Virus record (IMG/VR): IMGVR_UViG_3300027804_000001
Coordinates: 192,001-256,000 of that record
Origin: a virus
Taxonomy: Duplodnaviria; Caudoviricetes
Direction: 5' to 3' (one strand)
Length of the DNA stretch: 64,000 nt
Shown: positions 11,781-39,958 of the stretch, in pieces
How positions within the stretch are numbered: position 1 is the first letter of the stretch
Layout of the letters: each line of letters opens with the position of its first letter
The notes under the pieces: generated by a model
Seen by the model: only the letters and a program-made list of their open reading frames with translations
Told to the model about the DNA's origin: nothing
Database searches by the model: none
Position numbers and translations under genes: made by a program

Positions 11781-12751
11781 TAGTGATGTACAAAAGGATT
11801 ATATCTCTTATCAATTATTTCCTTATTATTTAAAAACCATTCAGTAGTTAATTTAATACCTTCATCCAGACTAACATGATTTCCCAATCCATGTTTTTCC
11901 ATTCTTTCCGTACTCATTAATCTTTTTGCATCTCCACTTGGCATATCACTTAACCATTTAACCTCTATGTTACGACCTGAATATTTTAAAATAATATCCA
12001 CTAAATTTTTAATCGAGTGTCCACCGCCAGAACCTAAATTAATAGGTTCTGTAATTTTATTTTCAACTACTTTCAACATTCCTTTTGCAACATCATCCGC
12101 ATAAATAAAGTCGCGAATAGGTGTTCCATCACCAAAGACTTCAAGCACATCACTTTCCTGTGCTTTTCTTATAAGTGATGGTATCACCATCGCGTTTTGA
12201 GGATTGAAATTATCATATGGACCATAAACATTAGCAGGTCTTACAATTGAAATTCTATCCCACCCATATTGTTTACTGTATGTTTCAGTTTGTAATTCAC
12301 CAATCCTTTTTGCCCAACCAGCATATTTGTCATTTGGTGATGGAAAAGTACTCCAAACAGATTCTTCATAAAAAACTTCCGCAGGTGAATAGACACCAAC
12401 AGAGCTGGTGTATAGATACCACTTAACATTTGATTCAAATGCCGCTTGTGTCATGTTTGTATTAAATTGTAACATAGGAACCATAAAGTCTACCGGTTGT
12501 TCAATACACATTTTAGGTGAACCCTTTACCCCCGCCAAATGAAATACATAATCTTTTCCTTTACATATGTCCAAACAATTGTCAAAGAATCTTAAATCAA
12601 CTTGGGTGAATTCAACACTTTCAGGTAAATCTACAGGTTTAGTTAAATCGGCAATAGTTACTATTGCACCTCTTTGTAATAAAAGATTTACAAGTGATCT
12701 ACCAATCATTCCTGATCCACCCGTTACTAATACTTTCTGATTCTCAAACAT
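11780..12751 (-). CDS. GDP-L-fucose synthase/ColC-like epimerase-reductase
   Basis: VTGGSGMIG, FHLAG, YAGWAKRIGE, RPANVYGPYDNF, VIPSLIRK and GDGTPIRDFIY motifs. Confidence 0.85.
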   Translation of the reverse strand: MFENQKVLVTGGSGMIGRSLVNLLLQRGAIVTIADLTKPVDLPESVEFTQVDLRFFDNCLDICKGKDYVFHLAGVKGSPKMCIEQPVDFMVPMLQFNTNMTQAAFESNVKWYLYTSSVGVYSPAEVFYEESVWSTFPSPNDKYAGWAKRIGELQTETYSKQYGWDRISIVRPANVYGPYDNFNPQNAMVIPSLIRKAQESDVLEVFGDGTPIRDFIYADDVAKGMLKVVENKITEPINLGSGGGHSIKNLVDIILKYSGRNIEVKWLSDMPSGDAKRLMSTERMEKHGLGNHVSLDEGIKLTTEWFLNNKEIIDKRYNPFVHH

Positions 12752-13925
12752 TGTTTAATTTTTTTGTTAAGTTTATAATTTGTTCATCTGTTAAATCCGT
12801 ATGATTTCCAATATAAAGTGAATAGTTGTGTACATAATTAACATTTTTTAATTCACCAACAATTCTATGTTCACATTTTTCTAAATAAGGTTGTAATACT
12901 TGATTTCCTCCTCCAGATGTACCTAATCTATATTCTACACCCTCGAAAAATAAAATATCACATACACTACTATAATCATCATTAACTTTAAAACTATCTA
13001 TGTAATTTGGTTTCATTATTAATGGTAACGCAAAATTACTATTACCCTCTAAATCAAATTCGGTGATAAATTTATTACCATCCAAATTATTTAACCAAAC
13101 ATCAAGATTATGTTTTCTTTTTTCAACATTGTAATCAATCCTTTTCATTTGTTCGATACCCAAAACGGCATTCATTTCTGTACTTCTCATATTAAATCCA
13201 GGAACAACAAAAGTAAAAAGTGGATTTAAATTTGGATATTCTCTTTGGTAATATTGTTGTGTCTGTTGTGAGACTTCTCTTGTCATACCATGTGATCTGA
13301 AAAGTCTCGCCAATTCATTAATTTTTTCGTTGTTTGTTGAAATCATACCACCTTCTACAGTTGTTATGTGGTGACCAAAGAAAAATGAGAAAATTGACAT
13401 ATCACCAAATGTACCAACTTTTTGTCCTTTATGACAAGCACCGTGTGATTCACAACAATCTTCAATTAATAAGATATTTTTTTCTTTTGCAATTTGAATT
13501 AATTCGTCATCTATAGCATTAAAACCTAAACAATGAACAATAACAATTGCTTTTGTTTCATCGGTAATTGCTTTTTTAATATTTTCAGTTGTAATTGATA
13601 AATTACTTAGAGAAATATCCACAAAAACCGGTTTCATTCCGAGTTGAACAATTGATGATACATCTGAAACCCAACCCAATGGTGGTACTATTACTTCACC
13701 AATACCTAATAATTCTTTTACTATTGCAATAGAAATATAGTTTCCTGATGAACCCGAATTTATCATTGTTGAGTTTTTTACACCCAACCATTTAGACCAT
13801 ATACTTTCAAATTCTTTAACTTTCTCACCATTAGTTAATCTTTGGTTTGATAATAAAAACTCACTAAGTGCCACTCTGTCCGTGTTTGAAATATTGTCAT
13901 TTATAAGGGGCCATTTAAAATTCAT
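12744..13925 (-). CDS. PLP/PMP-dependent DegT-fold enzyme with His in place of the catalytic Lys: ColD/E1-type NDP-4-keto-6-deoxysugar 3-dehydratase
   Basis: VNSGSSGN-like motif, IEDCCESHGA, and SFFFGHHITTVEGG (His at the position of Lys in true aminotransferases). Confidence 0.8.
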   Translation of the reverse strand: MNFKWPLINDNISNTDRVALSEFLLSNQRLTNGEKVKEFESIWSKWLGVKNSTMINSGSSGNYISIAIVKELLGIGEVIVPPLGWVSDVSSIVQLGMKPVFVDISLSNLSITTENIKKAITDETKAIVIVHCLGFNAIDDELIQIAKEKNILLIEDCCESHGACHKGQKVGTFGDMSIFSFFFGHHITTVEGGMISTNNEKINELARLFRSHGMTREVSQQTQQYYQREYPNLNPLFTFVVPGFNMRSTEMNAVLGIEQMKRIDYNVEKRKHNLDVWLNNLDGNKFITEFDLEGNSNFALPLIMKPNYIDSFKVNDDYSSVCDILFFEGVEYRLGTSGGGNQVLQPYLEKCEHRIVGELKNVNYVHNYSLYIGNHTDLTDEQIINLTKKLNNV

Positions 13926-13955: not shown

Positions 13956-14687
13956 TCAAAGATTGTCCAATGAATTATTCAAAATTGACTCTAAAAGATA
14001 TGGTGAGATGTTTATTGGATTATGTACACCCAATGGGTTTGGATAAAAAATGTTCTCAACACTAAATTTCATTGCAGTTTCTATATCAGGTAAATTATAC
14101 CCATCTAACCATTTGACAAAAAAGATATCCTCCCATCTGGGTTCATAATCTTTATGGTTTTTAGATATTTCCAACATAACATCTTTAGTCCTTAGAGATA
14201 AACCACCATTACCTATAAATTTATTTTCTTTAGGTTTTGTCCAAGGTGCACCGATATAATCATATTCTAAAAATTGTTCTACTCCGAATCTCAAAAGCAA
14301 TGTGTCTAACTGAAATGTTAAAACTTTTTTTCCTTTAACAAGACTCCAAAATTCATTTGATTTCATGTATTGATTATATTCTATTTTGGTGAAATCTTTA
14401 ACCCCGATGTTTATGAATTCTACATTTTTAATATCTTTTAAAATATCATACATAAAATCTTGGTTATCAATACCATGAAAAACCTGTAATCCCCATTTAA
14501 TGTTTGAATTATTCTCATTTAAAAAATATAAATGATTTTTTATTATAGATAACGTTTTTGTATCAATTCTAGGTTCAACATAAACAGCATAATAATCTGT
14601 TTCACTTGGTAAAACTGGTGAATAATTCTCCGTTTTTTTTGTGAAACTTTTTAAATATTTTTCAATTAAAAATTCTTGTGATGTCAT
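13956..14687 (-). CDS. DUF5672-family (glycosyltransferase-like) protein
   Basis: FQLDTLL, FLEYDYIGAPW, GNGGLSLR, EDIFF and PLGVH motifs. Confidence 0.75.
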   Translation of the reverse strand: MTSQEFLIEKYLKSFTKKTENYSPVLPSETDYYAVYVEPRIDTKTLSIIKNHLYFLNENNSNIKWGLQVFHGIDNQDFMYDILKDIKNVEFINIGVKDFTKIEYNQYMKSNEFWSLVKGKKVLTFQLDTLLLRFGVEQFLEYDYIGAPWTKPKENKFIGNGGLSLRTKDVMLEISKNHKDYEPRWEDIFFVKWLDGYNLPDIETAMKFSVENIFYPNPLGVHNPINISPYLLESILNNSLDNL

Positions 14688-15304
14688 ATCTTATCAATAA
14701 TACTATTATATATGTAATCACCTATAATTTTATATCCTAATAGATTTGGATGGTAATCTCCTTCCCAAAATTTTCTACCGTCGTTCCAAACACTTCTACT
14801 ACCATATTCCCAAACCGAAACGTTATTTTTAATTTCATATTCTTTTAGAATATCTGAAACACAACCATCAGGGTTTATGAATGATTTTGGTAATAGTGAC
14901 GTGTCAAAATTTTCTTCTTTAAACGTTGGGTAAAATGAGTTAAAATAAAAATGTTTATAATTTTTTAATAATTTTTCAAATTCCCAAAATAATTTTATTA
15001 AATCATAGTTATCTTTTGCATAACGATATGGATAAGAAAACATAACAATTATAATATCGTCTTCTTCCAAGAAGTTACTCTTAATCGTATCCTTTAAGTC
15101 ATTTGAGATAAAAACATTACCATAACCACAGACACCCATATTGACATATTCTATATCCAATTTTTCAGCAGCCCATCTTGGCCAAGAATTTTGATTTCTT
15201 AGTTTTTCAATGAATTTAGGTGCTTGTGCAATTTCTTTGTATTTTACTAAAGTTTCAACTCCGTGACCTGCGGTCCAACTATCTCCATAACACACTAATC
15301 TCAT
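14684..15304 (-). CDS. SGNH/GDSL hydrolase-family protein
   Basis: YGDSWTAG, NMGVCGYGN and DYHPN..GY motifs. Confidence 0.75.
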   Translation of the reverse strand: MRLVCYGDSWTAGHGVETLVKYKEIAQAPKFIEKLRNQNSWPRWAAEKLDIEYVNMGVCGYGNVFISNDLKDTIKSNFLEEDDIIIVMFSYPYRYAKDNYDLIKLFWEFEKLLKNYKHFYFNSFYPTFKEENFDTSLLPKSFINPDGCVSDILKEYEIKNNVSVWEYGSRSVWNDGRKFWEGDYHPNLLGYKIIGDYIYNSIIDKI

Positions 15305-16614
15305 GACATCAATGATTGAAATAATTTATAATCATCATTATTATTTTTTATTTCATTAATGATTTTACGATTGTTTTCTAATCTTTTAGTGTTTTCTTTA
15401 TAAAACTTAATGATTTCTTCTTTGTTTTCTTTAATTCTAACAACCTCATTAATTAATTTTAATAATCTAATTTGAATTGTTGGTTCATTATCATAACTGT
15501 GGTCAATAATATCATCAAAAAAATCAAAACCATATTTGTTCTTCATATATTTCACATGATGTTGGGTTGCAACTATGATTGGTAAGTTATAATACGCAAA
15601 AGGTCTGAATGATTTTTCACTAACATGAATAACATTAAAATCATCTCTCCATTGTGATTCTGTTACAATATTAACATACGATTTCATATATGAAAAACTA
15701 TCTTCGGGTATTAATAAACCTCCGGATTCCATTGCGGCTTCACCTAACGGGGGGAATTTAGTTTTATCAAATATTATTTCTCCATTCTCACTAAAATATT
15801 GTCTGTCTATTTCATAATCACTTTCTTTTACTTTTATTGAAAGTAGTTTTTTTATTTCCTGTTCACAATTATAAACCACACCATCAGGTAAAACCTCCCT
15901 CAACCAAATAAAGTCTTCTGGTGGTCTACTTTGACCACTTACAAATGACCAATTCACATCATCAATTAAACCTTTTTTGTCTAATAATGCCAAAGTTGCA
16001 TATCTATGTGGTTTTGGTGATTTATTATGACAAATAAAAAACTTACCTGTCTTATCCGTAATTAAATTAGGTGTTAAATCAGAAAAAATACTTGTACATG
16101 TTATTGGTATTAATTGTAATTGGGTAAATTGTATATTTCTGTTATGTTTTCTATTGTAGTCTTCAAAATTACCGTTGTTATTTAACAACATAAATTGTGC
16201 ATCATTAAGACCATTATTTGTTATGTAATTTATTAGTTCTATATAACCCATTTCATCATCACTTTCGTGTTCAGTTAGAAATACAATTGTAAAATTTGGA
16301 CATTCTTTTAAACAATTTCTAATTTCTTCAGAAAAAGATAAGTTCCTGTCTTTAAACATTTGTTCTATTGACATTGCCGTTTTAATAAAAAAATAATATT
16401 TTAAATTAGGATTTTCATATACGTCTTTAATTTTATTAAAAGTTCTTGATAGTGAGTGTCTATCGTAGTTTAATTGTGCACGATAATATCTTTCATAGAA
16501 ATCAAAAAATCCGTCTTCATATCTAAATCCATCAGATCCAAAAAATTCTGAACAATTAGGTAATGGTTTATCTCCATCCCATTTCTCGAAAACAAGTCTT
16601 ATATTCTTATCCAT
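15301..16614 (-). CDS. GT10-like glycosyltransferase-type protein (paralog family)
   Basis: LVFEKWD..PLPN, FFICHN..KPHR and SYVNIVTES..HVSEKSFRPF motifs. Confidence 0.55.
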   Translation of the reverse strand: MDKNIRLVFEKWDGDKPLPNCSEFFGSDGFRYEDGFFDFYERYYRAQLNYDRHSLSRTFNKIKDVYENPNLKYYFFIKTAMSIEQMFKDRNLSFSEEIRNCLKECPNFTIVFLTEHESDDEMGYIELINYITNNGLNDAQFMLLNNNGNFEDYNRKHNRNIQFTQLQLIPITCTSIFSDLTPNLITDKTGKFFICHNKSPKPHRYATLALLDKKGLIDDVNWSFVSGQSRPPEDFIWLREVLPDGVVYNCEQEIKKLLSIKVKESDYEIDRQYFSENGEIIFDKTKFPPLGEAAMESGGLLIPEDSFSYMKSYVNIVTESQWRDDFNVIHVSEKSFRPFAYYNLPIIVATQHHVKYMKNKYGFDFFDDIIDHSYDNEPTIQIRLLKLINEVVRIKENKEEIIKFYKENTKRLENNRKIINEIKNNNDDYKLFQSLMS

Positions 16615-17833
16615 TTGTTATTTTTTTATAGAATAAACTATCATCTTTCATATTTGAAATTTCCAATAGTTTAATTTTATTATTTTCCATTCTTTCTTTT
16701 AGAGATGGGTATATTTTGATTATTTCGTCTTTTTTATTGTTCAATTCAATTATCTGTTCGATAATTTTTTTCATTCTTTTTATATTATCCTTCTCATAAT
16801 CATAATCATGATTAACAATATCATCAAACATATCAAATCCATATTTTTTTCTTAAGACATCAACATGTAAATAAGATGCACAGAACAAAGGTATTTGATA
16901 ATATAAAAAGGGTTTCATTGATTTTTCAGATATGTGAATCAAGTCCTCTTCAAAAAAATTTGATTCAGATACTATATTAATGTATGAGTTTTCTTGGTCT
17001 TTTTTTATTTCAGGCATGTGAACATACAATGGAACATCCCGTATTCCTTCAAAATCGGGTTTTTTTTCCTTAATAGAATAAAAATACTCAATTTCTTCTT
17101 TTAATAACAATGTAGTTTCATCGTCTAAAAATCTTTTAATATCTTCAAATTGTGCAAATTTATTATATTCATCCTCATCGTCCCCAAATGACCAATTCAC
17201 ATTTTTTATTAAATCATATTTTTTTAAAAAAGATAACAATAGATGTCTATGTATCTTTCTCATATTATTCAAACAAATAAAAAATTTACCTTCTTTATTT
17301 TTTATAAAATTAGTCTCAAGATTTCTTACAGATGTCGAATACCACATTGGTACGTGCATAGTTGAGAGGTAATTAATTTTTAAATTCTTTTTTTCTATCT
17401 GTATTTGGTTTAATGCGTTGTTGTTAATTATGTATATTTTTTCGTCGGGTATATTATTATCACGTATAAACTTTTTAAGATATAAAAAATCTTTGTTTTG
17501 ATAACTTTCGTGACTACTTATAAAAAGAAGATTTAGATTATCATTTTTTTTAACCATATCTACAATCTTCTCAGTTATAACTTTCTTATCCATAAGTAGA
17601 CAATTCAAACTACAAGACAGGTGTTCAACCAAATAAAAAAATTTGGTTTTGTCATTTCTGAACACATCTTCAGGTTTGAAATACTCAACACTAATATCAT
17701 AAGTGTCAGATATAAAATCTGCTCTACTCAACGAACACTCAGGAAAAATTTTACTTCCATTTGGTTTTGGTACATCTTGATCCCAATCATCAAATACAAG
17801 ATTTAATTTATTTCTTGATTCTTGTATTTCCAT
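16607..17833 (-). CDS. GT10-like glycosyltransferase-type protein (paralog family)
   Basis: LVFDDWD..PKPNG, FFICLNN..HR and SYINIVSES..HISEKSMKPF motifs. Confidence 0.55.
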   Translation of the reverse strand: MEIQESRNKLNLVFDDWDQDVPKPNGSKIFPECSLSRADFISDTYDISVEYFKPEDVFRNDKTKFFYLVEHLSCSLNCLLMDKKVITEKIVDMVKKNDNLNLLFISSHESYQNKDFLYLKKFIRDNNIPDEKIYIINNNALNQIQIEKKNLKINYLSTMHVPMWYSTSVRNLETNFIKNKEGKFFICLNNMRKIHRHLLLSFLKKYDLIKNVNWSFGDDEDEYNKFAQFEDIKRFLDDETTLLLKEEIEYFYSIKEKKPDFEGIRDVPLYVHMPEIKKDQENSYINIVSESNFFEEDLIHISEKSMKPFLYYQIPLFCASYLHVDVLRKKYGFDMFDDIVNHDYDYEKDNIKRMKKIIEQIIELNNKKDEIIKIYPSLKERMENNKIKLLEISNMKDDSLFYKKITNG

Positions 17834-18974
17834 AATATTCTACTCTTATTTCTTCTGATTTATATTCTCTCCATGGATCTAATACAATTGAGTTTTTAGT
17901 AAATTTATAATCACGATGTTTTCCATAATGACCCAATAGATAAACAGCATCAATTGGAGTATTCAAATCATATTCAACCTTAATTCCTTCTTTCTCAACA
18001 TAGTAACCTACTAATATGGATGATGAACCGTCAACATATTCAACATCTGGTTTATAAGCCTTTCCCAAAATAACAATAGGTAAATTATTTTCTCTAGAAA
18101 GACTAACTAATTTTAATGCAATGTTTTCTGCTTGTTTTTCTCTTGCTGTCATAATTGCATCAAACAAATCATAACCCAAATTCAAATTTTCAGCCAAAAA
18201 TCTTAAAGCTATATTATCTCTTGGATGACATCCTCCACCATCACCCATACCTGCTTTCATATATGATGGTCCCATTATTCTTTTAGTACTTCTTTCAAGT
18301 GCACCTGTTACAACATCAACATTCATGTTACCAATTTTTTCTGCAACATCTTGTATCATATTAACCAATGCAACTTTGGTTGAAATGAATGTGTTATAGA
18401 AGATTTTAATACCTTCTGATTCATCCCACGTCCCAATTTCAAAACGAGTATTTTCTTTTACGATTGTTTTATAAAAGTCGGATAATAATTTAGCGTCTCC
18501 TGTAATAGAACCGTCTTCAGTACCAATAATAACCATTTCAGGATTTACCATGTCCCACTTAACGGTACCCATTGCAATCAAATAAGGGTTATAAATAAAT
18601 CTAAAATTAGTACATAGTGGAATAAATTCTCTTCTTATAGTACCAGGTAATACTGTTGAAATTAGCACAACTAATTGTTCTTTAGTTGTATGTTTATTAA
18701 CTTCTGTCAATACCTGTTTAACGATACTATAATTAAAATCCTTATTTTCTAAATGTGATGTTGGGTATCTACCATCATAATCAGGATGATGGGGAGTTGG
18801 TACTGCAATAAAGATTAAATCTCTATTTTTACATACCTCTTCTATTGTATCAACCATATTGAAATTTAATGGTGATACTTTATTTACATCATATCCAATT
18901 ACTTCATATTTTTCTGCCATAACTTCGGCGGCGTCTTTTCCTAATTTACCTATACCGATAAATCCTATTTTCAT
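17808..18974 (-). CDS. ugd: UDP-glucose/GDP-mannose 6-dehydrogenase family
   Basis: IGIGKLG, FIAVPTP, STVLPGT, YNPYLIAMG, GGGCHPRD (catalytic Cys) and LGKAYKP motifs. Confidence 0.88.
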   Translation of the reverse strand: MKIGFIGIGKLGKDAAEVMAEKYEVIGYDVNKVSPLNFNMVDTIEEVCKNRDLIFIAVPTPHHPDYDGRYPTSHLENKDFNYSIVKQVLTEVNKHTTKEQLVVLISTVLPGTIRREFIPLCTNFRFIYNPYLIAMGTVKWDMVNPEMVIIGTEDGSITGDAKLLSDFYKTIVKENTRFEIGTWDESEGIKIFYNTFISTKVALVNMIQDVAEKIGNMNVDVVTGALERSTKRIMGPSYMKAGMGDGGGCHPRDNIALRFLAENLNLGYDLFDAIMTAREKQAENIALKLVSLSRENNLPIVILGKAYKPDVEYVDGSSSILVGYYVEKEGIKVEYDLNTPIDAVYLLGHYGKHRDYKFTKNSIVLDPWREYKSEEIRVEYYGNTRIKK

Positions 18975-21130
18975 ACTATATCTAATTTTATTTGATTTAT
19001 TATTGATAAAATTTCTTTATAATGATTCATACTATCTCCATCAAAACTATACTTTGATGTTACAATTTCAATATATTTTTTTCTGTTAAACTCACAAACT
19101 TCTAACATTTCATTTCTAATTGATTTCAACTCATCAATTGTTTTATCTTTGAATTTTTCAATTTCATTAACTATCATATCAGATCTAACACCCATTTCTT
19201 CTTCATTATCATAACTTTCATCAAACCATCTATCAAATGTTTTGAATCCGAATTCTTTTAATTTTTTAAGAGTTCCTTTATTACCTAAAACCATAAATGG
19301 ATGACCACATGATATTGGTTTCCATATTTTTTCGGAAAGGAATAAAGTATATTTGTCTGTTAAACTTTCCGTTACTATTGATATAAAAGTATCTTGGTAA
19401 TCTTGAAACGCAATTTCGTTTGCCCAATTATAATCCAATCCCCTATCAATTTCTATTGGTGCCTTTTTTTGTAATTGATTTGTTGGGTGGTCATCTGGTA
19501 TGTTTTCTACATAAGGAAAACTATTTAAACTTACTTTACCTAAATCTAATAGATTTTTTGATAACATGTTAGACAAGAAATGTATTCTATGGTGTCTAAT
19601 GTTTCTATTGTATGATAGATATAGATATTTGTTATCCCTTGGTTCAAACAATATGGAACCTGTTCTTTCTTTCATCATATGATAATTAATCCAATTATCA
19701 AAAATTGAAATCGGGATACATTTAAACTCTATTCCTTTATTTTTTGCAATCTCATCAATAATCAAATTACCACTTAACAAATAAACTGATTTCGGGGGTA
19801 TTTCAAAATCTTTAATCCATTTATCTAATATTTCTAAATCATCGTTATTTTCACAACCAATGTAACCCTCAAGACCATTTACTAAAACCAATTTACATAA
19901 ACCTGATTTAATATCATTTATGTATTTTTCTGATATACACCTAAATCCAATTTTTTCATTTCTAATAAAAAAATTAGGGTCAAATACATTTATAAGGTAT
20001 ATGTGTTTTTCGTCTTTTATCTTTTCTTTTTGTCTAAAATCAACAAAATCATCATAAAAATTTGGTGCGACTTGGTCTTTATATGTTCCATATCCAAAAA
20101 GTTTATAATTACTGTTAACATCCATTAGATTCCAAATTCCCCACATTTTTGGTATATCTAGACCACCCTCCTCTTCAAGATACCATGTTCTACTTGCACC
20201 ATTTGGTCTTGGGCAACCCAAAATTGAATCGTACTCTTCTAAACCAAAGACAACTTTTTCAGATAAAAATATTTCATATATCCCCCTCTCAAATGATTTT
20301 GGTATGAAATTGTGTACATATTTTTGAATCTTATCAAAATTCACATAATAAGACCTAAATTCAAGTCCATCATCAAAATACTCAACATTAATCTTTTTAT
20401 TAATCGACGCTTCTACTTTTTCAATTAATTGAATTTTAGTTATATTAAAATCATTAAATCCAACATTTAAGATTTTTTCTTCCGTATTTTGTGATGACAA
20501 CCTAAAAAGAATTTCTGCACAATCTTTAACATTTAGATTTGGTCTATATGCCTCTGCTTCGTATATCCTAATTTGTTTATTTTGTTTTACGTCATTAACT
20601 ACATTATTAATTAACAAATCGTTTCTATCTATCTCACCAATTCCATATAATGTTGCTAATCTCACAATTAAAAAATTATCATACCCACCATTTAAAATTT
20701 GTTTTTCTCCTTCAATTTTTAATTTTGAATATAGTGTTGTTGGTACTAATTCGGTGTTTTCATCTACAACTTGGTTGGTGTTACCATAAACACTACAACT
20801 ACTTAAGAAAATAAGTTTGAATGATGGTGACACTTTTTTTACACATCTAATTGCATGTTCCATTAATAATATTTCTGATGTAATATGCAAGTCATCTTTA
20901 ACCTCACTAAATCTAGGAGATGCCATGTATAAAACACAATTAATATTTGACAACTTGTCTAAATGTGATGTTATGTTTGTTAGATTATCTTTAATATATG
21001 GACAACCTAAATTATCAGGATTCGAATATTCAAATTTATCATATACGATAACCTCTTGATTTCTATCGATAATCAGTTTAGCCAAAACAGAACCCAAATA
21101 TCCACCACCACCTAATAGTAAAAATTTCAT
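18971..21130 (-). CDS. Fusion of an NAD-dependent epimerase/dehydratase with a GT10-like paralog
   Basis: aa 1-~290 have LLGGGGYLGS, LSSCSVYG, YSKLK and RLATLYG. The remainder has PRPNG, YLSYNRNIRHHR and ISIVTES..FLSEKIWKPI. Confidence 0.75.
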   Translation of the reverse strand: MKFLLLGGGGYLGSVLAKLIIDRNQEVIVYDKFEYSNPDNLGCPYIKDNLTNITSHLDKLSNINCVLYMASPRFSEVKDDLHITSEILLMEHAIRCVKKVSPSFKLIFLSSCSVYGNTNQVVDENTELVPTTLYSKLKIEGEKQILNGGYDNFLIVRLATLYGIGEIDRNDLLINNVVNDVKQNKQIRIYEAEAYRPNLNVKDCAEILFRLSSQNTEEKILNVGFNDFNITKIQLIEKVEASINKKINVEYFDDGLEFRSYYVNFDKIQKYVHNFIPKSFERGIYEIFLSEKVVFGLEEYDSILGCPRPNGASRTWYLEEEGGLDIPKMWGIWNLMDVNSNYKLFGYGTYKDQVAPNFYDDFVDFRQKEKIKDEKHIYLINVFDPNFFIRNEKIGFRCISEKYINDIKSGLCKLVLVNGLEGYIGCENNDDLEILDKWIKDFEIPPKSVYLLSGNLIIDEIAKNKGIEFKCIPISIFDNWINYHMMKERTGSILFEPRDNKYLYLSYNRNIRHHRIHFLSNMLSKNLLDLGKVSLNSFPYVENIPDDHPTNQLQKKAPIEIDRGLDYNWANEIAFQDYQDTFISIVTESLTDKYTLFLSEKIWKPISCGHPFMVLGNKGTLKKLKEFGFKTFDRWFDESYDNEEEMGVRSDMIVNEIEKFKDKTIDELKSIRNEMLEVCEFNRKKYIEIVTSKYSFDGDSMNHYKEILSIINQIKLDIV

Positions 21131-21131
21131 A

Positions 21132-22142
21132 TCAGTCTCTTAACATTTCAGTTGTAACACAATGGAATGACCCACCCAAAGTTCTTGAGTGTCTTATTTT
21201 ACAATCCAATGTGTCTATATTATATTTTTTTAATTCTTTTATTAATTCAGTTTGTCTATTATCTACAATCACAGTATTTTCATCAATAGATAATAAATTC
21301 ACACCAATCCAAACAGATGCCCTAATTGTTTTATGATAACCAATATCTACCATAGGTGGACACCATATCTTATCCCAAGACTTTAAAAAGTCAGGCATGT
21401 TATTTTCATTTACTCTTTCAGGATTTAATAAACATAAACCTTCTCGAAGTACCGCAATTGTTGAATCAATATGAATATATGAATACACGTTTTCTATTGT
21501 GTGTACTCTGTATTCTTTACCTAAAAAATTTTGTAACCATTTTGCACCTTTTAAATTACCCGTGTTAGAAACCAAGTACAAAATATCATTATTACATCTT
21601 AAGATATTCGCAGCATCAAATACCGGTTCGTCATTGTTCAATGTTATCTTTGATAAGTCATCTCTTTGATACATTGAATCCAACAATCTTGGTTTTGGTG
21701 CCGCAACCCAATTAGCACCTTCTTCCATTTTCTCAATGAAAATTTTTTTAAAACAATCTGTTTCAAGTTGTCTAGAACGAAGGGACATTGGTGATTCGAG
21801 TATATTATTACCAATTACAGTAACGGTATCTCTTGGACAAAACGTATAGTATTGCGTTGTTTCCCAATAACCATTGGATATTGTTTTTGTTGTATCTATT
21901 GGAGTTGGTCTATAAACTTTAACACCTATATTGGTTAGTAAATTAGAAAGGTTTTCTAAATCTTCGTATGTTTCTTCATATACTTTTGGGTCCCAAAATC
22001 CTATTTCATCTTTTGGTATTTCATCATCAGTTGCATAGTTTATACAATGTAAATCTTTACCATGTGTTGGCATATTTGCATTGTCTACTGTTCCAACAAT
22101 AATTTCTCTAAGTTTACCCCATTCATTATTAACTAACACCAT
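21132..22142 (-). CDS. Amidinotransferase (glycine / inosamine-phosphate amidinotransferase family)
   Basis: WGKLREIIVG, CPRD, FDAAN, TGN.KG..WLQ, HIDST and RHSRTLGGSFHCVT (Asp/His/Cys triad). Confidence 0.9.
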   Translation of the reverse strand: MVLVNNEWGKLREIIVGTVDNANMPTHGKDLHCINYATDDEIPKDEIGFWDPKVYEETYEDLENLSNLLTNIGVKVYRPTPIDTTKTISNGYWETTQYYTFCPRDTVTVIGNNILESPMSLRSRQLETDCFKKIFIEKMEEGANWVAAPKPRLLDSMYQRDDLSKITLNNDEPVFDAANILRCNNDILYLVSNTGNLKGAKWLQNFLGKEYRVHTIENVYSYIHIDSTIAVLREGLCLLNPERVNENNMPDFLKSWDKIWCPPMVDIGYHKTIRASVWIGVNLLSIDENTVIVDNRQTELIKELKKYNIDTLDCKIRHSRTLGGSFHCVTTEMLRD

Positions 22143-22983
22143 TATTTAATTTTTTTAAAACATAATCTAAAACGAGATTTTGTGATAAATGTCCGTGATG
22201 TGATAAATCTCTAGCCTTCACTTCACCATGTTCATCAACAATTTCATCCACAATAAAATCATCTGATAGGAAATTTGGTGTGTCTTTATAAAACCCACAA
22301 CGAAAAGTCCAATTTAAAACTTTCACGTCTTTAGATTTCCATATGATATTTGATAATTTTATGTATAAATCTCTTTGTTTAATTAATTCTCCTTTATTTT
22401 CTAAGAATCCATGTAGATACCATTGTCCGTACAATTTTGAATTTGCGGGATACATCTCCGTAGGGAATGCTCCACAGAACAATTCAAAACCAAGTGATGT
22501 TCCTTCTTTTGAATAATCAGAAACAAAAGAAAATGTTGTTCGATACTGAAATGGCCATTGATATATAACGAGTTTAGGTAGTTTATTTATTTTCAATAGA
22601 TGTTCAAAAAGTAACATTGTGTTATAATATTGAAAATCTATTGATGTTGATCCCATACCCATATTAAGAACCTCCAAACCCAATTCTTTTCCAACCTTTG
22701 TTGACCACATATCTTCTTCATATAATCCAATACCTTCAGTATATGAACAACCAAACACAATCATAAAGTCACCCTTAATTTCATCTAATTCTTTTGATCT
22801 ATAACCCCAAGAATTATATTTGTATTCTATTGGCTTTTCATAATAATACCAATCATTACCCATTACTTCTTTATTTTTGGTAAATAGCCCTTCAGAATCA
22901 GTCGATGCAAACAAAAATGTTTCATTTTTCTGACCAATGTTTTGAATAATAGGTAAATTGTTATTTAGAATTAGATATGACAT
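22129..22983 (-). CDS. SGNH-like hypothetical protein
   Basis: YKYNSWGYRS, VFGCSYTEG, LNMGMGSTS and DLSHHG motifs. Confidence 0.55.
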   Translation of the reverse strand: MSYLILNNNLPIIQNIGQKNETFLFASTDSEGLFTKNKEVMGNDWYYYEKPIEYKYNSWGYRSKELDEIKGDFMIVFGCSYTEGIGLYEEDMWSTKVGKELGLEVLNMGMGSTSIDFQYYNTMLLFEHLLKINKLPKLVIYQWPFQYRTTFSFVSDYSKEGTSLGFELFCGAFPTEMYPANSKLYGQWYLHGFLENKGELIKQRDLYIKLSNIIWKSKDVKVLNWTFRCGFYKDTPNFLSDDFIVDEIVDEHGEVKARDLSHHGHLSQNLVLDYVLKKLNNGVS

Positions 22984-23014
22984 TATTTAACCAATATAAC
23001 CTTTTTTCATTAAT

Positions 23015-23701
23015 TTATAAACCCTTGAAGGTTGAGTTCAATCTTAAATCTTTATAGTTTTTTGAACCGTGTGTATCATCATTTATTTCAGATATTTTAC
23101 TCATTAAAATTAATCCCCTTGCTGCATCTTCTGGTGTCATGTACATATGCCAACCACAAAATTCAATATCATCATCCAAATAATTTTTACTTAAGTCTCG
23201 ACCATCATAACAAGCCCTTTTAAACCATTTATAAGCCTCATAATCGTCACATAAAATCATACCTCCTCTACCTATTGGTAATCTTTTTTTCATTTGAAAT
23301 GACAACGCTTGGAACCCTCCTTGGTACATATCCTTAGTCCATCTACCGGCCCCATCCCATACATCCAAAGGCTCTAGTTTATAAACACCGGACCATTCTT
23401 TCTCAATAAATTCAAACTCATAACCGGCATGTAAAATTTGCATCGGTACAGATGCATATGTGAAATAAGGAATCTTAATTTTTTGTGGTTTATTGATATA
23501 TTTTAGAATAAGAAATAACGCATTACTACAACAATCTACAGCAATTGCATATTTTGAACCAGAAAACTCCGCAACTTTATTTTCAAATATATCTATGATT
23601 TCATTTGGGTTATTCCATACATAACCCATATTAGACAAGGTAGATAACTCAGGTCTCTGTAATTCTTCTGGTATTTGTCCTAATGGCCATTCTTTATACA
23701 T
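23015..23701 (-). CDS. Compact DegT/DnrJ/EryC1/StrS-family sugar aminotransferase
   Basis: FENKVAEFSG, AVDCCSNAL, WDGA, SFQMKKRLPIGRGG (Lys retained) and YMTPEDAARGL. Only 228 aa. Confidence 0.8.
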   Translation of the reverse strand: MYKEWPLGQIPEELQRPELSTLSNMGYVWNNPNEIIDIFENKVAEFSGSKYAIAVDCCSNALFLILKYINKPQKIKIPYFTYASVPMQILHAGYEFEFIEKEWSGVYKLEPLDVWDGAGRWTKDMYQGGFQALSFQMKKRLPIGRGGMILCDDYEAYKWFKRACYDGRDLSKNYLDDDIEFCGWHMYMTPEDAARGLILMSKISEINDDTHGSKNYKDLRLNSTFKGL

Positions 23702-23702
23702 T

Positions 23703-24740
23703 TTAAAGTATTTTAAGATGATTTATATATTTTGCTTTAATCATCTCCAAATCATCTGTAACATATACCGCATCTTTTTTTACATAACACTCCGCAAAAG
23801 TTGACCACGTGGATGTTGGGGACTTAATTAAAAATGGGCAGTATGATAAAGAAAACAAATCGACCAAATTTTCTACTACATTTCCGTGTTGGAATTCAGA
23901 TTTTTTTGTACCTCCTGTTAAAAGGTAATCATAAGCAACATTAATAAGGAATTTCTTATTTACTATGTTATTTTTATATCTTTCATAAAAATAATACATA
24001 ATGTTATCAGGCATATCCGTACTAATATAAAAATTTTGATCGGGATTAATTTTTAACATTTGATCCATTATATCAAAATATAACTTATCTTGATGAAATT
24101 CATAAAAAACATGTGATTGAATTGTTGCCGTTCTTTTTATTAAATCATAATCATGTCTAACGTCTTCGGGTAATGTGTCTAAATCTTTTTGTGAATATGG
24201 TACACCATTACCTCTTCTTATATGAATACCAACCGCATCAGAAACTTCTTTTTTAATTGAGTCTTCCAAATATCTATGTTTAAGTCTAATTTCAGATAAT
24301 GGTCTTTTAGTTTTTTTTAAAACTTCGTAAGGATATAAATTATCCAATTCACGATAATTAAAATTACAATAATAATGATTGTCCTTTAATTTCATTAAAC
24401 CTGTCTCAAACATTCTTTCTACATCATCAGTATAAAGTGGTTTCGCAACATCTATTTTTTTATTTTCTACGTCATATATTGCAAGAAATTTCAATTTTTC
24501 AATATCATATTCATCACCTTCGATGTTAGATATTGTTTTTGAATCCGGTATATCTATGAGTTTAGTTTCTGGCCAATATTTTTCCTCAAGTAAAATGTTA
24601 TAATCATAGTCATTGTGTCTGTTTATTTCATATGCGACTTCCCAATGAAAAATTCTATTACATAATCCTGTATCTGATGTGTGTCCATTCCATCCTCCAA
24701 ATGGTTCTAACCATCTAAGTGTTCTTTTATATTGTGCCAT
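23703..24740 (-). CDS. GT11/NodZ(GT23)-like fucosyltransferase-type glycosyltransferase
   Basis: GLCNR, VGIHIRRGN, FYISTD and DLFSLSYC..I.S.TSTWS correspond to the conserved alpha-1,2/1,6-FucT motifs. Confidence 0.7.
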   Translation of the reverse strand: MAQYKRTLRWLEPFGGWNGHTSDTGLCNRIFHWEVAYEINRHNDYDYNILLEEKYWPETKLIDIPDSKTISNIEGDEYDIEKLKFLAIYDVENKKIDVAKPLYTDDVERMFETGLMKLKDNHYYCNFNYRELDNLYPYEVLKKTKRPLSEIRLKHRYLEDSIKKEVSDAVGIHIRRGNGVPYSQKDLDTLPEDVRHDYDLIKRTATIQSHVFYEFHQDKLYFDIMDQMLKINPDQNFYISTDMPDNIMYYFYERYKNNIVNKKFLINVAYDYLLTGGTKKSEFQHGNVVENLVDLFSLSYCPFLIKSPTSTWSTFAECYVKKDAVYVTDDLEMIKAKYINHLKIL

Positions 24741-24743
24741 TAA

Positions 24744-26195
24744 TTATTTCTTATTATAATTGTGTTTATCTGAAACATATTCACCTGGTTCAAAGTGTGT
24801 AATTCTACCATCAGTCATTTTAACATCAGGTATTGTATTATCAATTTCTAACGAATTATACCATTCAGCTAATTCGGGGAACGTTTCTACAAAATTTTTA
24901 TTTCTTCTTATATCATATTGCATATAGAAACTTTTGAAATCATGATACTGAAGGGAATTATCCATCTCAGTTGTATTATGACCTCTATTAACAACTTCTA
25001 TATAATCAATTAATCTTTGAATTTGTGCCTTTTCACCAACAGTAAAATATTCACTATTCTTATGTTTCATAAACCATAATGAAAGTTTACCATGTAAACC
25101 ATATTTTACATCATCAGGTAATACCAATGGTGACATAAACGCCGGCCATCTTAAAATGTTTAAATCAACTATTGGTCTGTGTGTACCGTATTTCTTTTTA
25201 AGTTCTAACATATCGTCTAAGAACTCAGTGATACTAAACAAACAAAGACTATTGATTGTCATCATAATAACAACCTGTCTAAAGTTTGCACTCTCTATAA
25301 ACTTAACTAAATTAGAATGCCATAATTTATAGTTTAATCCATCTCTAATATATTCGGCATGTGCACCATATGCCTCACAACTTGTATACAAATCAAATTC
25401 TTTAACCTGTACTTCGTGTGTGACATTAATGAGTCTTTCTAATGTTTTTTGATTTAAACCTAAATTAGAATTAATTGCTAATCTAAGATTTGGTGATGGG
25501 TATTGTTTCATCAAATCAATAAATTGCCAAAAGTTTCTACTTTGTGATGGTTCTCCACCAGTTACTCTGATTTCCATTAATTTTTCTGACAACTCCGGCC
25601 ACCATTCTAAGAATGCCTTTACATATGGGTTATCTTCATTGTATTTTCCAAAGATTTCAGACCAAGACCCATCTGCATAATATGCACCCGCACTTGTTGT
25701 TTTAAATTTCTGATATGGCCCATTATCTCTAATATCCTTACCCCAAGTTGTTGAATAACCCGAATTACAATATGAACAAGCAAAATTACACGTTCTGTCA
25801 AATGACACCTCAATCGTTTTTGGTGTTATATCTTCAGTCCAATGTATATCTTTCAATTTGGCAATGTCTTGTTCATCGTAAATTATACTTTTGTAAACCC
25901 TATCTGCAATGTTATTTCTACCAATATCCTCTACCTTCCAACAGTAAGAACATTCGGCGGGTTTAACACCATCCAACATCATTTTTCTAATTCTTTTCTT
26001 AAAATCTGTGTTGTGTAGTGCAGATGGGTTTGTTTTAATTGCTTCCGCATCAATTGGGTGTGGTAGTGGTAGATGACAAGAGTTTGTGAATCCGTGACCT
26101 AAATGTAGACTAACATTATACCATTTTGCAGCACAAAAACTACAACTGACTTTATTTAAATGTTCATCTCTCCAACTTGCTAATTCTTCTGACAT
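24744..26195 (-). CDS. Radical SAM protein with an N-terminal twitch/SPASM-like Cys cluster
   Basis: CNFACSYC (CxxxCxxC) and VTGGEP, plus N-terminal CSFC..KW..SCH..CSYCW. Confidence 0.9.
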   Translation of the reverse strand: MSEELASWRDEHLNKVSCSFCAAKWYNVSLHLGHGFTNSCHLPLPHPIDAEAIKTNPSALHNTDFKKRIRKMMLDGVKPAECSYCWKVEDIGRNNIADRVYKSIIYDEQDIAKLKDIHWTEDITPKTIEVSFDRTCNFACSYCNSGYSTTWGKDIRDNGPYQKFKTTSAGAYYADGSWSEIFGKYNEDNPYVKAFLEWWPELSEKLMEIRVTGGEPSQSRNFWQFIDLMKQYPSPNLRLAINSNLGLNQKTLERLINVTHEVQVKEFDLYTSCEAYGAHAEYIRDGLNYKLWHSNLVKFIESANFRQVVIMMTINSLCLFSITEFLDDMLELKKKYGTHRPIVDLNILRWPAFMSPLVLPDDVKYGLHGKLSLWFMKHKNSEYFTVGEKAQIQRLIDYIEVVNRGHNTTEMDNSLQYHDFKSFYMQYDIRRNKNFVETFPELAEWYNSLEIDNTIPDVKMTDGRITHFEPGEYVSDKHNYNKK

Positions 26196-37307: not shown

Positions 37308-38009
37308 TTATAAATTAAATCTTTTTTTTGTTGCATTAAAAATTTCACCTACTTGTGTTGATGTTAATGCTCTGTTATACATTAAAACTTTCCCAACTTT
37401 ACCATTTACATAGTACGCATTGATTCCAATATCACCACCGATAGACAAAGCACCTGTGTTATAATAATTTCCACCAGATGGTGTTGTGGTTGCAGTCTCA
37501 TCATAATTGTTTCTTATAATTGTTTGTGTATTATCCGTTCTATTTAAAATTGCAGTAAACATTGCCCACGTATTAAAAGTGTAACCGATAAAACCTGTAT
37601 CTGTTCTACTACTTGCATCGTTACCTATCATAAATCTAACACCACTTGGATTGTTAGCACCAATATAATAACCATTAGAACCACCCGACCTTTTTGCAAT
37701 CCATAAATCCCAACCATCTCCAGCAATTGAAGGGTCTGAATTTACCCAACATATTATTGTAAACGACCCACTATTTGGATTTATAGTTGAACTATTTGTA
37801 ATTGAAATATAATCATCTACACCATCAAATGAAAAAACACCACCATTAGAATTATTAAAGGTTGCACCGTTTGTTAATGTCCCGTTATTACCATTTTTAG
37901 ATATATCATAAACATTATTTCCACTACCGATATAGGATCTATATGACCCAGCATCAATAGATAATACTAATCCGTTTCTTGTAAAATTAGGCCCTCTAAA
38001 AATTCCCAT
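37308..38009 (-). CDS. LamG/ConA-like lectin-domain virion protein
   Basis: GLVLSIDAG, FSFDGVDDYI and YNRALTSTQVGEIFNATKKRFNL. Confidence 0.82.
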   Translation of the reverse strand: MGIFRGPNFTRNGLVLSIDAGSYRSYIGSGNNVYDISKNGNNGTLTNGATFNNSNGGVFSFDGVDDYISITNSSTINPNSGSFTIICWVNSDPSIAGDGWDLWIAKRSGGSNGYYIGANNPSGVRFMIGNDASSRTDTGFIGYTFNTWAMFTAILNRTDNTQTIIRNNYDETATTTPSGGNYYNTGALSIGGDIGINAYYVNGKVGKVLMYNRALTSTQVGEIFNATKKRFNL

Positions 38010-39958
38010 TATTTAATTTTTTGCTCTAACGCCTCGATACGTTTTAATAACTCTTTATTTGTTTCAATTAGTAACGCAACTAATTTTTCATATTTAACAG
38101 CTTTAAATCCATTATTTCTTGTTGTTACAATTTCGGGTAAAACTTTCTCTATTTCTTGAGCAACAACACCAATATCGTGTCCTTCATTTTCATGTATTCC
38201 TTTCATTGGTACCCAATCAAATTCATAACCACTTATTTCGTTTAATTTATCCAATGAACCTTTAATTGGTCTTATATTTGTTTTTAATCTTTCATCAGAA
38301 CCATAATATGCAATTACATCATTTGTGGCTCTTATTAAACCAACAGTTGTTGGTGTTTCGGTTCCAACTCCAAGTGCACCCGAAACATATAGATTTCCGT
38401 CGACATCAACTCTCGCAGATGCGCTTACAGATAAAATTGGTGCACCTGAAATATCACCAACACTAAAAACTGTTCCAAGTAAATCGTCTGTAACCGAAAA
38501 TAATTGACCTTGTGAACCTTGTATATCTACAACAACTGAACCCGATTTATAAATTTCTAATGAACCTGAAATAGACATTACTGTTCCTGTAAATCTTGCA
38601 TTTGATTCAACTGTTACATTTGGTGATGTACTGTTTAATGTTAATAAACCATCATTAAGTGTTCCTGATAATGTTACCGTACCACTACTACCCGATGAAC
38701 CACTACTACCGCTTGAACCCGATGTTCCTGAACTTCCACTACTTCCTGATGTACCACTACTACCAGAACTTCCTGAGGATCCACTTAAACCTGAAGAACC
38801 CGAAGAACCTGATGTTCCACTACTTCCTGATGTACCAGAAGTTCCTGAAGAACCCGATGTACCTGAAGTACCCGAACTACCTGAAGATCCCGAAGAACCT
38901 GAGGTTCCACTAGTTCCTGAAGTACCAGAACTTCCACTAGTTCCACTACTACCACTTGAACCTGAACTACCTGATGATCCACTTGTACCTGAAGTACCCG
39001 AAGAACCATTACTACCACTACTACCACTTGTACCAGAAGAACCTGAGCTTCCTGATGTTCCACTACTTCCACTTGTACCTGAAGTACCACTAGAACCTGA
39101 TGTTCCACTTGTACCATTTATACCTGACGTACCACTTGAACCACTACTACCGTTACTTCCTGATGTTCCACTTGTTCCTGAACTTCCACTAGTACCTGAA
39201 GTACCTCTAGTTCCTGAACTACCAGATGTTCCTGAGGAACCACTTGAACCTGATGTACCGCTAGAACCTGATGTACCAGAACTTCCGCTTGAGCCAGAAG
39301 AACCAGATGTTCCTGAAGAACCTGAAGTACCAGAACTTCCTGATGTTCCGCTGGTACCAGATGAACCATTACTACCACTTGTTCCACTTGTACCAGATGA
39401 ACCATTACTACCACTTGTACCAGATGAACCATTACTACCACTTGTACCAGATGTTCCTGAACTTCCAGAAGAACCTGATGTTCCCGAACTACCACTACTT
39501 CCACTTGTACCTGAAGTACCACTAGTTCCTGAAGTACCTCTAGTTCCTGAACTACCAGATGTTCCTGATGAACCTGAACTACCAGATGTTCCTGATGAAC
39601 CAGAACTTCCTGAAGAACCTGATGTTCCCGATGTTCCACTACTACCACTAGTACCTGAACTTCCAGAAGAACCTGATGTACCACTAGTACCTGAAGTACC
39701 CGATGTCGCAGCCGCAAAAGTGGTACCATTTAACACTAAACTACCAGTAACTCTTAATGAACCTGTGAAATCATGACTATCATCACTTGAATTACCAAAC
39801 TTTGTTGAACCACTGCTAAATGATGCGGTTTGATATATTACCGAAGATGAAATTATGTATTGTTGTGCGACGAGATTACCCTGTATATTTAAATCTCCTG
39901 AGATGTCCGCCGAGCCTGATACAATCAGACCATTTTTGACTTTAAATTCGTTTGCCAT
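38009..39958 (-). CDS. Tail-fibre-like protein with a ~340-aa Gly-(S/T)-S repeat and a C-terminal Peptidase S74 autocleaving chaperone
   Basis: YYGSDERLKTNI...GVVAQE...YEKLVALLIE..KEL (S74 domain). The triplet repeat is visible directly. Confidence 0.88.
   Translation of the reverse strand: MANEFKVKNGLIVSGSADISGDLNIQGNLVAQQYIISSSVIYQTASFSSGSTKFGNSSDDSHDFTGSLRVTGSLVLNGTTFAAATSGTSGTSGTSGSSGSSGTSGSSGTSGTSGSSGSSGSSGTSGSSGSSGTSGSSGTRGTSGTSGTSGTSGSSGSSGTSGSSGSSGTSGTSGSNGSSGTSGSNGSSGTSGTSGSNGSSGTSGTSGSSGTSGSSGTSGSSGSSGSSGTSGSSGTSGSSGSSGTSGSSGTRGTSGTSGSSGTSGTSGSNGSSGSSGTSGINGTSGTSGSSGTSGTSGSSGTSGSSGSSGTSGSSGSNGSSGTSGTSGSSGSSGSSGSSGTSGSSGTSGTSGTSGSSGSSGSSGTSGTSGSSGTSGTSGSSGTSGSSGSSGLSGSSGSSGSSGTSGSSGSSGTSGSSGSSGSSGSSGTVTLSGTLNDGLLTLNSTSPNVTVESNARFTGTVMSISGSLEIYKSGSVVVDIQGSQGQLFSVTDDLLGTVFSVGDISGAPILSVSASARVDVDGNLYVSGALGVGTETPTTVGLIRATNDVIAYYGSDERLKTNIRPIKGSLDKLNEISGYEFDWVPMKGIHENEGHDIGVVAQEIEKVLPEIVTTRNNGFKAVKYEKLVALLIETNKELLKRIEALEQKIK
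38681..39711 (-). repeat. Gly-X-Y coding repeat (GTS/GSS), synonymously diverged
   Basis: About 110 consecutive triplets with no Pro. Codon choice varies, so this is not an exact DNA tandem repeat. Confidence 0.95.

Follow-up and report, generated by a model that had tools for sequence, protein, structure and literature searches.

A 64,000-nucleotide stretch of DNA from a very large uncultured freshwater phage (Duplodnaviria; Caudoviricetes; IMG/VR record IMGVR_UViG_3300027804_000001, positions 192,001 to 256,000; hereafter the window) encodes an amidinotransferase and a miniature DegT-family protein within an island of glycan genes, and the gene content suggests that this phage probably puts a cationic guanidino group on a sugar. 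Three adjacent genes on the minus strand are at issue: P0001 (21132..22142), a predicted L-arginine-dependent amidinotransferase of 336 amino acids with a StrB1-like architecture that belongs to a mostly viral clade; P0002 (22129..22983), a 284-residue protein resembling SGNH-fold esterases or acyltransferases; and P0003 (23015..23701), a 228-residue, minimal DegT-family protein of the kind that uses pyridoxal 5'-phosphate (PLP). We propose, at a confidence just short of an even bet, that these genes jointly constitute a tailoring module in which the short DegT protein would supply an amine, the amidinotransferase would convert it to a guanidino-sugar, and the product would be placed on a glycan. 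The original prediction had located an amidinotransferase with an intact catalytic triad two genes away from a 228-residue DegT-like protein, and both were recovered at exactly those coordinates on the minus strand with P0002 between them.

The identity of P0001 was established by comparison with solved enzymes. A phmmer search of the PDB aligned residues 2-335 with StrB1 (PDB 1bwd; E = 9.3e-97), and the same search recovered other solved amidinotransferases with weaker scores, namely SxtG (1.6e-57), HsvA (8.6e-54), and human AGAT (5e-52). Streptomyces griseus StrB1, taken from its genome, is 45.7% identical to P0001 over 335 positions, and two one-residue gaps are the only ones in this alignment, whereas AGAT-type enzymes need several, one of 7 residues. 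The catalytic triad is intact as had been claimed, with Asp176 in FDAAN, His224 in HIDST, and Cys328 in FHC; His224, Asp226, Asp105, and His327 are each at least 97% conserved among 135 relatives. The ratio of nonsynonymous to synonymous substitution rates (dN/dS) against the orthologue in the IMG/VR relative L010 is 0.04, an approximate value with dS above 1. Scans of Pfam-A and NCBIfam gave no match to P0001, even at E = 10, and the protein can be named solely by PDB and PHROG searches. By these comparisons, P0001 is a full-length amidinotransferase of the AGAT/StrB1 type, within the guanidino-group-modifying enzyme superfamily, and an active-looking enzyme under strong constraint. When positions 21132-26195 of the window were compared with the relatives L002-L010 and L172-L181, P0001 proved more constrained than any other gene in the block (74-92% identity), and the flanking genes had drifted much further in the same relatives (SGNH-like protein, 34-51%; fucosyltransferase-like protein, 36-65%; short-chain dehydrogenase/reductase (SDR) fusion, 40-79%; short DegT protein, 40-86%).

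We found relatives of P0001 in no fewer than 335 IMG/VR contigs and no fewer than 438 bacterial genomes. We reconstructed the family tree from 135 sequences using FastTree, unrooted and without an outgroup, and recovered a split with 99% support that places the 51 viral sequences without exception, together with 17 bacterial ones, on the P0001 side; these bacterial sequences come mostly from metagenome-assembled genomes (MAGs) of Acidobacteriota and Burkholderiales. On the far side lie StrB1, StrB2, and other Streptomyces, cyanobacterial, and Bacillota sequences. A "300-flap" governs acceptor choice in AGAT, CyrA, and AmtA (PMC4887976), and the corresponding five residues before the catalytic His read V-Y-S-Y-I in P0001 and L-Y-A-S-T in StrB1; most of the viral side of the tree carries Y-(S/A)-Y-x, and position 193 is Asn in P0001 as opposed to Asp in StrB1. 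P0001 thus shares with StrB1, the L-arginine:scyllo-inosamine-4-phosphate amidinotransferase of S. griseus, the fold, the length class, the triad, and the lack of AGAT-type inserts, but differs from it in tree side, flap, position 193, and a context that is a phage glycan island without cyclitol genes. Human AGAT, cyanobacterial CyrA, SxtG, and HsvA are homologous over the full length (E = 1e-50 to 1e-57) and have the same catalytic residues, but they carry extra segments (query gaps of up to 7 residues) and a flap of the D-P-N-P-M type that governs specificity for small acceptors. Since clade and specificity flap differ, the acceptor of P0001 is not transferable from StrB1, and an assignment as a StrB1 orthologue (EC 2.1.4.2) was rejected on the separate clade, the differing flap, and the lack of cyclitol-forming genes in its company. 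StrB1 is the closest solved relative, but the analogy with streptidine synthesis made in the original prediction does not extend to orthology.

The short DegT protein P0003 matched the Pfam family DegT (PF01041) with E = 2.7e-14 and 53.6 bits (gathering score 19.8), covering the profile in part, at positions 24-92 and in a second stretch. Its Lys139 (SFQMKK) aligns with the PLP lysine of the solved sugar aminotransferase 9bgp (SFHPRK), the residue that is Ala in the mutant 9bgr, and in 82 diverse family members Ser134, Phe135, Lys139, and Gly147 are invariant and Asp116 is at least 90% conserved, which bears out the earlier claim that the PLP lysine is kept. That the protein is far shorter than usual also proved correct (228 residues vs. 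~360-400 in canonical DegT proteins), and it does not have the canonical two-domain architecture. An exhaustive search returned 1114 representative clusters at E ≤ 1e-3, 500 of them at E ≤ 1e-10, mostly of 200-245 residues with few fusions (for example, to GT1 and an FkbM methyltransferase). P0003 is therefore not a truncation artefact, being part of a large conserved family of similar length, and its dN/dS is 0.06. The AlphaFold2 (AF2) model has a mean confidence (pLDDT) of 96.5, and only sugar aminotransferases rank among its top structural matches (ArnB, GDP-perosamine synthase, PseC, WlaRG, and DesI), with Foldseek E-values of ~1e-10, VIA Z of 18-21, and a root-mean-square deviation of 2.6-3.4 Å over ~200 of the 228 residues. 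With these enzymes, P0003 shares the fold and the positions of the PLP Lys, Asp, and Ser. On the strength of the model and these residues, P0003 is most probably an aminotransferase, a working PLP enzyme of minimal size. Given the E-values and the family-wide conservation in both proteins, the pairing of an intact amidinotransferase with a Lys-bearing short DegT protein is not a chance observation.

Two further DegT proteins bear on this assignment. The full-length DegT protein of the island (12744-13925) has His in the place of the PLP Lys (SFFFGHH, SFFFGHHITTVEGG), a signature of ColD/E1-type 3-dehydratases; by its sequence the protein is predicted to be of the dehydratase type. P0003 is therefore the sole Lys-bearing DegT member in the island. 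A canonical, Lys-bearing DegT protein of 401 residues is encoded elsewhere in the genome of this lineage, 105 kb away in a complete relative.

The middle gene, P0002, encodes GCS in place of the GDS motif (Gly78 and Ser80), and an alignment of its orthologues with GDSL-type paralogues shows Gly78, Ser80, Asn107, and His262 to be invariant, with Asp259 three residues ahead of His262. The AF2 model (pLDDT 87) matched TesA, acetyl-xylan (CE2/CE3) esterases, and the peptidoglycan O-acetyltransferase PatB in Foldseek (E = 1.5e-4 to 1e-3), and no match to the P0002 sequence was found in Pfam, NCBIfam, or the PDB. Its paralogue at 14684-15304 resembles Lipase_GDSL_2 (7.8e-07, below the gathering score), and a direct BLASTP comparison of the two reached only E = 0.038. 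The model thus points to an SGNH-fold esterase or acyltransferase. With a dN/dS of 0.32, P0002 evolves far faster than its neighbours. In the relative L010 (7283-9202), as in L002, L007, and L173, an additional gene for a B12-binding radical S-adenosylmethionine (SAM) enzyme of 633-639 residues lies between the short DegT and SGNH genes; it is absent from the window. Radical SAM methylases of class B act in the tailoring of aminoglycoside sugars, and by analogy some of these relatives may also C-methylate the sugar on which the module acts.

The three genes lie in a densely packed region. The window is AT-rich (~29% GC), almost every gene between positions 51 and 54194 is on the minus strand, and the DNA is that of a phage, with genes for collagen-like tail fibres, a sigma factor, and a DNA methyltransferase; close relatives are found among IMG/VR contigs, the longest of 326 kb, and almost no near-identical DNA was found in known phages. 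One base separates P0003 from the gene before it (P0004), 31 bases separate P0003 from P0002, the end of P0002 overlaps the start of P0001 by 14 bases, and one base lies between P0001 and the next gene downstream. Owing to this tight packing on one strand, P0003, P0002, P0001, and the flanking genes very probably share one transcript.

The flanking genes, all on the minus strand, are of the sugar-modifying kind. Upstream in the direction of transcription, P0004 (23703..24740, 345 residues) is a candidate glycosyltransferase of the fucosyltransferase superfamily (NodZ/FUT8/O-FucT-like), with weak Pfam matches to NodZ/GT11 and ESM Atlas neighbours, by features and by structure, in O-FucT/NodZ/FUT8 clusters. 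It is preceded by two twitch-type radical SAM enzymes (NCBIfam NF033640, N_Twi_rSAM; 1e-87 and 4e-91), of which the 483-residue product of 24744..26195 (1e-87), a candidate keto-forming oxidant, had no sequence match in the PDB, BtrN included. Downstream of P0001, a 719-residue fusion (18971..21130) combines an extended-type SDR domain that resembles epimerases and 4-oxidases (residues 1-270; Pfam Epimerase, 7.7e-21) with an unnamed domain of ~430 residues that bears an SEK...P motif. The best PDB matches of the SDR domain are 6vo6, Pal, and UDP-glucuronate 4-epimerases, and its motifs (GxxGxxG, SSCSVYG, and YSKLK) include the epimerase-type SSCSVYG and not the TDE motif of dehydratases. The SEK-motif domain belongs to a family of ~400 residues whose members include the C-terminal part of the fusion, the products of 16607-17833 and 15301-16614, and that of 8668-9981 in L106, a Pseudobdellovibrionaceae MAG; no Pfam model covers it, and the named Atlas clusters nearest to it are of GT10, a weak lead (score 0.80) by which the domain is a possible GT10-like transferase, although membership in GT10 itself was set aside. 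A UDP-glucose/nucleotide-sugar 6-dehydrogenase of 388 residues follows (17808..18974; Pfam UDPG_MGDP_dh domains; PHROG 9148, 5.8e-98; TIGR03026, 5.7e-44), and farther downstream the island contains a GDP-mannose 4,6-dehydratase-like gene and additional SDRs. Ser/Thr-rich collagen-like tail fibres are encoded 15 kb from the module, one fibre gene being that at 38009-39958.

To place these genes in a wider context, we collected 52 dereplicated amidinotransferase loci, comprising the window, 49 IMG/VR groups, the Synechococcus phage S-SCSM2R, and one bacterial MAG, and clustered the open reading frames lying within 6 kb of the amidinotransferase gene. The commonest neighbour was the SEK-motif domain (31/52 loci), followed by fucosyltransferase-like proteins (19/52), the short DegT protein (18/52, across amidinotransferases 42-92% identical to P0001), SGNH-like proteins (15/52), twitch radical SAM enzymes (14/52), and UDP-glucose dehydrogenases (12/52). 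In 13 of the 52 loci, a protein of ~300 residues with the motifs GTTE, D.AY, SLSK, and RIG was found, always beside a 2-oxoglutarate (2OG) oxygenase of ~178 residues. In most of these loci the surroundings are of the glycan type, with sugar-tailoring genes. Synteny recurs in distant settings: L205 and L210 have the order 2OG oxygenase, short DegT protein, amidinotransferase (45-46% identical), a gene of no assigned function, and twitch radical SAM enzyme, while the Pseudobdellovibrionaceae MAG has, among ordinary bacterial genes, a three-gene operon of a short DegT protein, a 437-residue SEK-motif protein, and an amidinotransferase. An Acidobacteria MAG encodes a clade-mate amidinotransferase with HAD, GT2, GDSL, SDR, and full-length DegT genes, and loci of the L198 type also hold a SPASM radical SAM enzyme, a B12 radical SAM enzyme, and a NodU/CmcH carbamoyltransferase. 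The recurring pattern, set among transferases, is that of an oxidant (2OG oxygenase or radical SAM), a PLP enzyme, and an amidinotransferase.

The ~300-residue protein (family A4; L208, 8592-9488; L226, 9160-10002; and 11 other loci) precedes the amidinotransferase and has motifs like those of class I/II aminotransferases, an assignment based on these motifs together with a sub-threshold Pfam match (E = 0.004). The A4 profile had no PDB match at E = 0.01, and its hhalign comparison with the short DegT family gave a non-significant probability of 0.4%. A4 is possibly a second, unrelated minimal aminotransferase that does the same job as the short DegT protein, a lead that we put forward as such. 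The short DegT protein also occurs in other company. In Flavobacterium phage immuto, it adjoins a gene for a "pilin glycosylation protein", read here as an acetyltransferase by its name only, and one for a nucleotide-sugar epimerase; this arrangement would fit the short DegT protein as the amine-forming step, with a product that is then N-modified in different ways.

Taken together, the tailoring module could operate as follows. The first step would introduce a keto group into a sugar that is most likely linked to a nucleotide, with the twitch radical SAM enzyme, the SDR domain of the 719-residue fusion, or a GDP-sugar 4,6-dehydratase pathway as candidate oxidants. The short DegT protein would then turn the keto group into an amine by means of PLP bound at Lys139. 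The amidinotransferase would transfer the amidino group of L-arginine onto Cys328, release ornithine, and pass the group to the amine, yielding a guanidino-sugar, which the fucosyltransferase-like and unnamed transferase-like proteins would install in a glycan, probably on the collagen-like tail fibres. The SGNH-type protein may add or remove an acyl group at some step. Which amine accepts the group, in what order the steps run, and where the product ends up are inferred here, as are the formation of the keto-sugar and the installation in a glycan; the enzyme identities with their catalytic or PLP residues, the packing of the operon, the recurrent synteny, and the strong purifying selection are observed. 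A route like that to 4-amino-4-deoxy-L-arabinose (Ara4N), with a UDP-glucose dehydrogenase, a decarboxylase, and an ArnB-type transaminase, is one option among several. It was considered since ArnB tops the Foldseek list of P0003; yet no sugar aminotransferase stands out from the others in that list, and by similarity the SDR domain falls nearer to 4-epimerases or 4-oxidases than to decarboxylases.

The original prediction had left the acceptor as either an amino sugar or an aminocyclitol, and its two halves fared differently. We searched a 326-kb relative of the window, 100% complete by CheckV and with an amidinotransferase 77% identical to P0001, for inositol-1-phosphate synthase (PF01658), GFO/IDH/MocA dehydrogenase (PF01408), and cyclases like 3-dehydroquinate synthase (PF01761). 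None of the three families was found in it, nor in two partial relatives, and control genomes gave the expected matches in each search. The cyclitol route was accordingly rejected as the leading reading on the three empty searches of the complete relative; with no cyclitol-forming genes, a separate clade, and a differing flap, a cyclitol acceptor is unlikely, save for one provided by the host. A sugar, the other half of the prediction, is plausible, and a guanidino-sugar, while the acceptor remains inferred, is more likely than a guanidino-cyclitol. It is the best reading of these data, which we hold at roughly even odds.

Several observations weigh against the proposed module. Pairing of the two enzymes is not obligatory: 75 of the 80 best short-DegT loci, from a search run with a 12-sequence alignment, have no amidinotransferase, and 34 of the 52 amidinotransferase loci have no short DegT protein, so that the pairing is facultative both ways and each enzyme can therefore work alone. 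The logic of transamination followed by amidination, put forward in the original prediction, finds backing in the 18 loci that hold both genes and in their sugar-tailoring surroundings, but it does not describe a fixed pair. The model of P0003 aligns to chain residues ~16-325 of the canonical enzymes of 360-400 residues at 15-22% identity, skips ~100 internal residues, and has no C-terminal tail. In solved family members the missing parts help to bind the nucleotide, and the short DegT protein, as modelled without them, might not take a nucleoside diphosphate sugar. The SDR domain is also an uncertain source of the keto group, its motif being epimerase-type with no dehydratase TDE motif. In about ten marine loci of IMG/VR (among L206, L207, L209, and L213-L224), an amidinotransferase 44-47% identical to P0001 lies between CobS/CobT-like AAA/VWA genes and a metallophosphoesterase. 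No sugar genes were seen around it, and the enzyme may serve another purpose there. Finally, an incomplete literature search found no paper on a guanidino-sugar in a glycan or on an amidinotransferase in a polysaccharide cluster.

These marine loci would suit a different explanation, namely that the amidinotransferase acts on a free amine (glycine, lysine, a polyamine, or an amino acid derivative) as an auxiliary metabolic or small-molecule enzyme, with antibiotic synthesis included, and that its location in a sugar island is incidental. Characterised family members mostly use small amines and are often promiscuous (PMC4887976, PMC3684758); the A4 neighbour in 13 loci resembles a class of aminotransferases that usually handles amino or keto acids; and antibiotic synthesis was the proposal of the authors of the S-SCSM2R study (PMC12801897). 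We nevertheless think this unlikely, as in this lineage the gene overlaps its neighbour in a one-strand glycan operon, transferase-like and sugar-tailoring genes are the commonest neighbours across the 52 loci, and P0001 has neither the AGAT-type insert nor the DPNPM flap that closes the site around small acceptors. Equally, the amine that is amidinated could be glycan-related without being supplied by the short DegT protein: the two enzymes might act on separate sugars, or the amino sugar might already be in the glycan or come from the host. The facultative pairing and the second, canonical DegT protein of 401 residues in the genome of this lineage would favour such an arrangement. So would the StrB1-like architecture, which without an AGAT-type insert would admit bulky acceptors; in solved StrB1 the missing insert leaves the active site open. 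Set against this are the closeness of the two genes in three independent contexts (L205/L210, the lineage of the window, and the L106 operon) and the similarly strong purifying selection on both, and we rate a separate amine supplier as unlikely, too.

A phosphorylated aminocyclitol, as for StrB1, would make the product a guanidino-cyclitol, a streptidine-like pseudo-sugar. In addition to the kinship with StrB1 as the nearest solved relative, one of the top structural matches of the short DegT protein, tied with many, is 7b0d, named in the PDB as a glutamine--scyllo-inositol transaminase, and the combination of a twitch radical SAM enzyme with a DegT-type transaminase recalls BtrN and BtrS in the synthesis of 2-deoxystreptamine. 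P0001, however, lies outside the StrB1 clade with a different flap, the complete relative has none of the three cyclitol-related enzyme families, and the radical SAM enzyme has no sequence similarity to solved structures, that of BtrN included, all of which leaves a cyclitol acceptor improbable. Least probable by far is a hypermodified, amine-bearing DNA base as the substrate of the enzyme. Some distant phage loci do place the gene beside a 5'-3' exonuclease, a dUTPase, or a DNA methylase, but these are ordinary replication-module genes, most such loci also hold SEK-motif transferase-like genes, and the operon in the window has no DNA-modification genes.

Phage amidinotransferases were found in the literature as annotations only and never as characterised enzymes. 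One described case is S-SCSM2R, in which a short DegT protein of 195 residues ("AHBA synthase"; 37% identical to P0003, E = 5e-43) and an amidinotransferase 42% identical to P0001, which differs from it by two deletions, share a block with a radical SAM enzyme, a 2OG oxygenase, and glycosyltransferases. ORF305, ORF306, and ORF309 of this phage are annotated as "AHBA synthase", radical SAM, and "inosamine amidinotransferase", and the trio was called "antibiotic synthesis genes" without experiments (PMC12801897). Orthology between the radical SAM genes of S-SCSM2R and the window was rejected, since only the core motifs match. S-SCSM2R (PQ898602) also encodes a second "glycine amidinotransferase", ORF266, detected in its virion proteome (PMC12801897); a tblastn search with P0001 gave no match to it at E = 1e-5. 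The Campylobacter phages CP220 and CPt10 have a putative glycine amidinotransferase beside five radical SAM genes (PMC2853527), which is similarly embedded among radical SAM genes but only 23-27% identical to P0001, and no match to the short DegT protein was found in these phages.

These results define a mostly viral clade of StrB1-like amidinotransferases, represented in the IMG/VR contigs counted above, and a miniature DegT family of ~200-245 residues, perhaps the most compact form in which the sugar aminotransferase fold still works. Current annotation of both families is inconsistent, ranging over glycine amidinotransferase, DDAH, AHBA synthase, WecE, and "antibiotic synthesis genes". The enzymes are of known kinds, found here in an unstudied context: in the papers searched, the guanidino groups made by this enzyme family belong to small molecules (creatine precursors, streptomycin, saxitoxin, cylindrospermopsin, and homoarginine). 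More tentatively than for the phage in hand, and with some doubt, we suggest that large freshwater and marine phages use a module that oxidises, transaminates, and amidinates to place a permanently cationic guanidino-sugar on the glycans of their virion fibres. If true, it would introduce guanidinylated glycans for the first time, and aminoglycoside-type amidino chemistry would for the first time serve to build a surface structure instead of an antibiotic. A guanidino-sugar on phage fibres would then constitute a new glycan building block, whose fixed positive charge could govern adsorption to negatively charged host surfaces.

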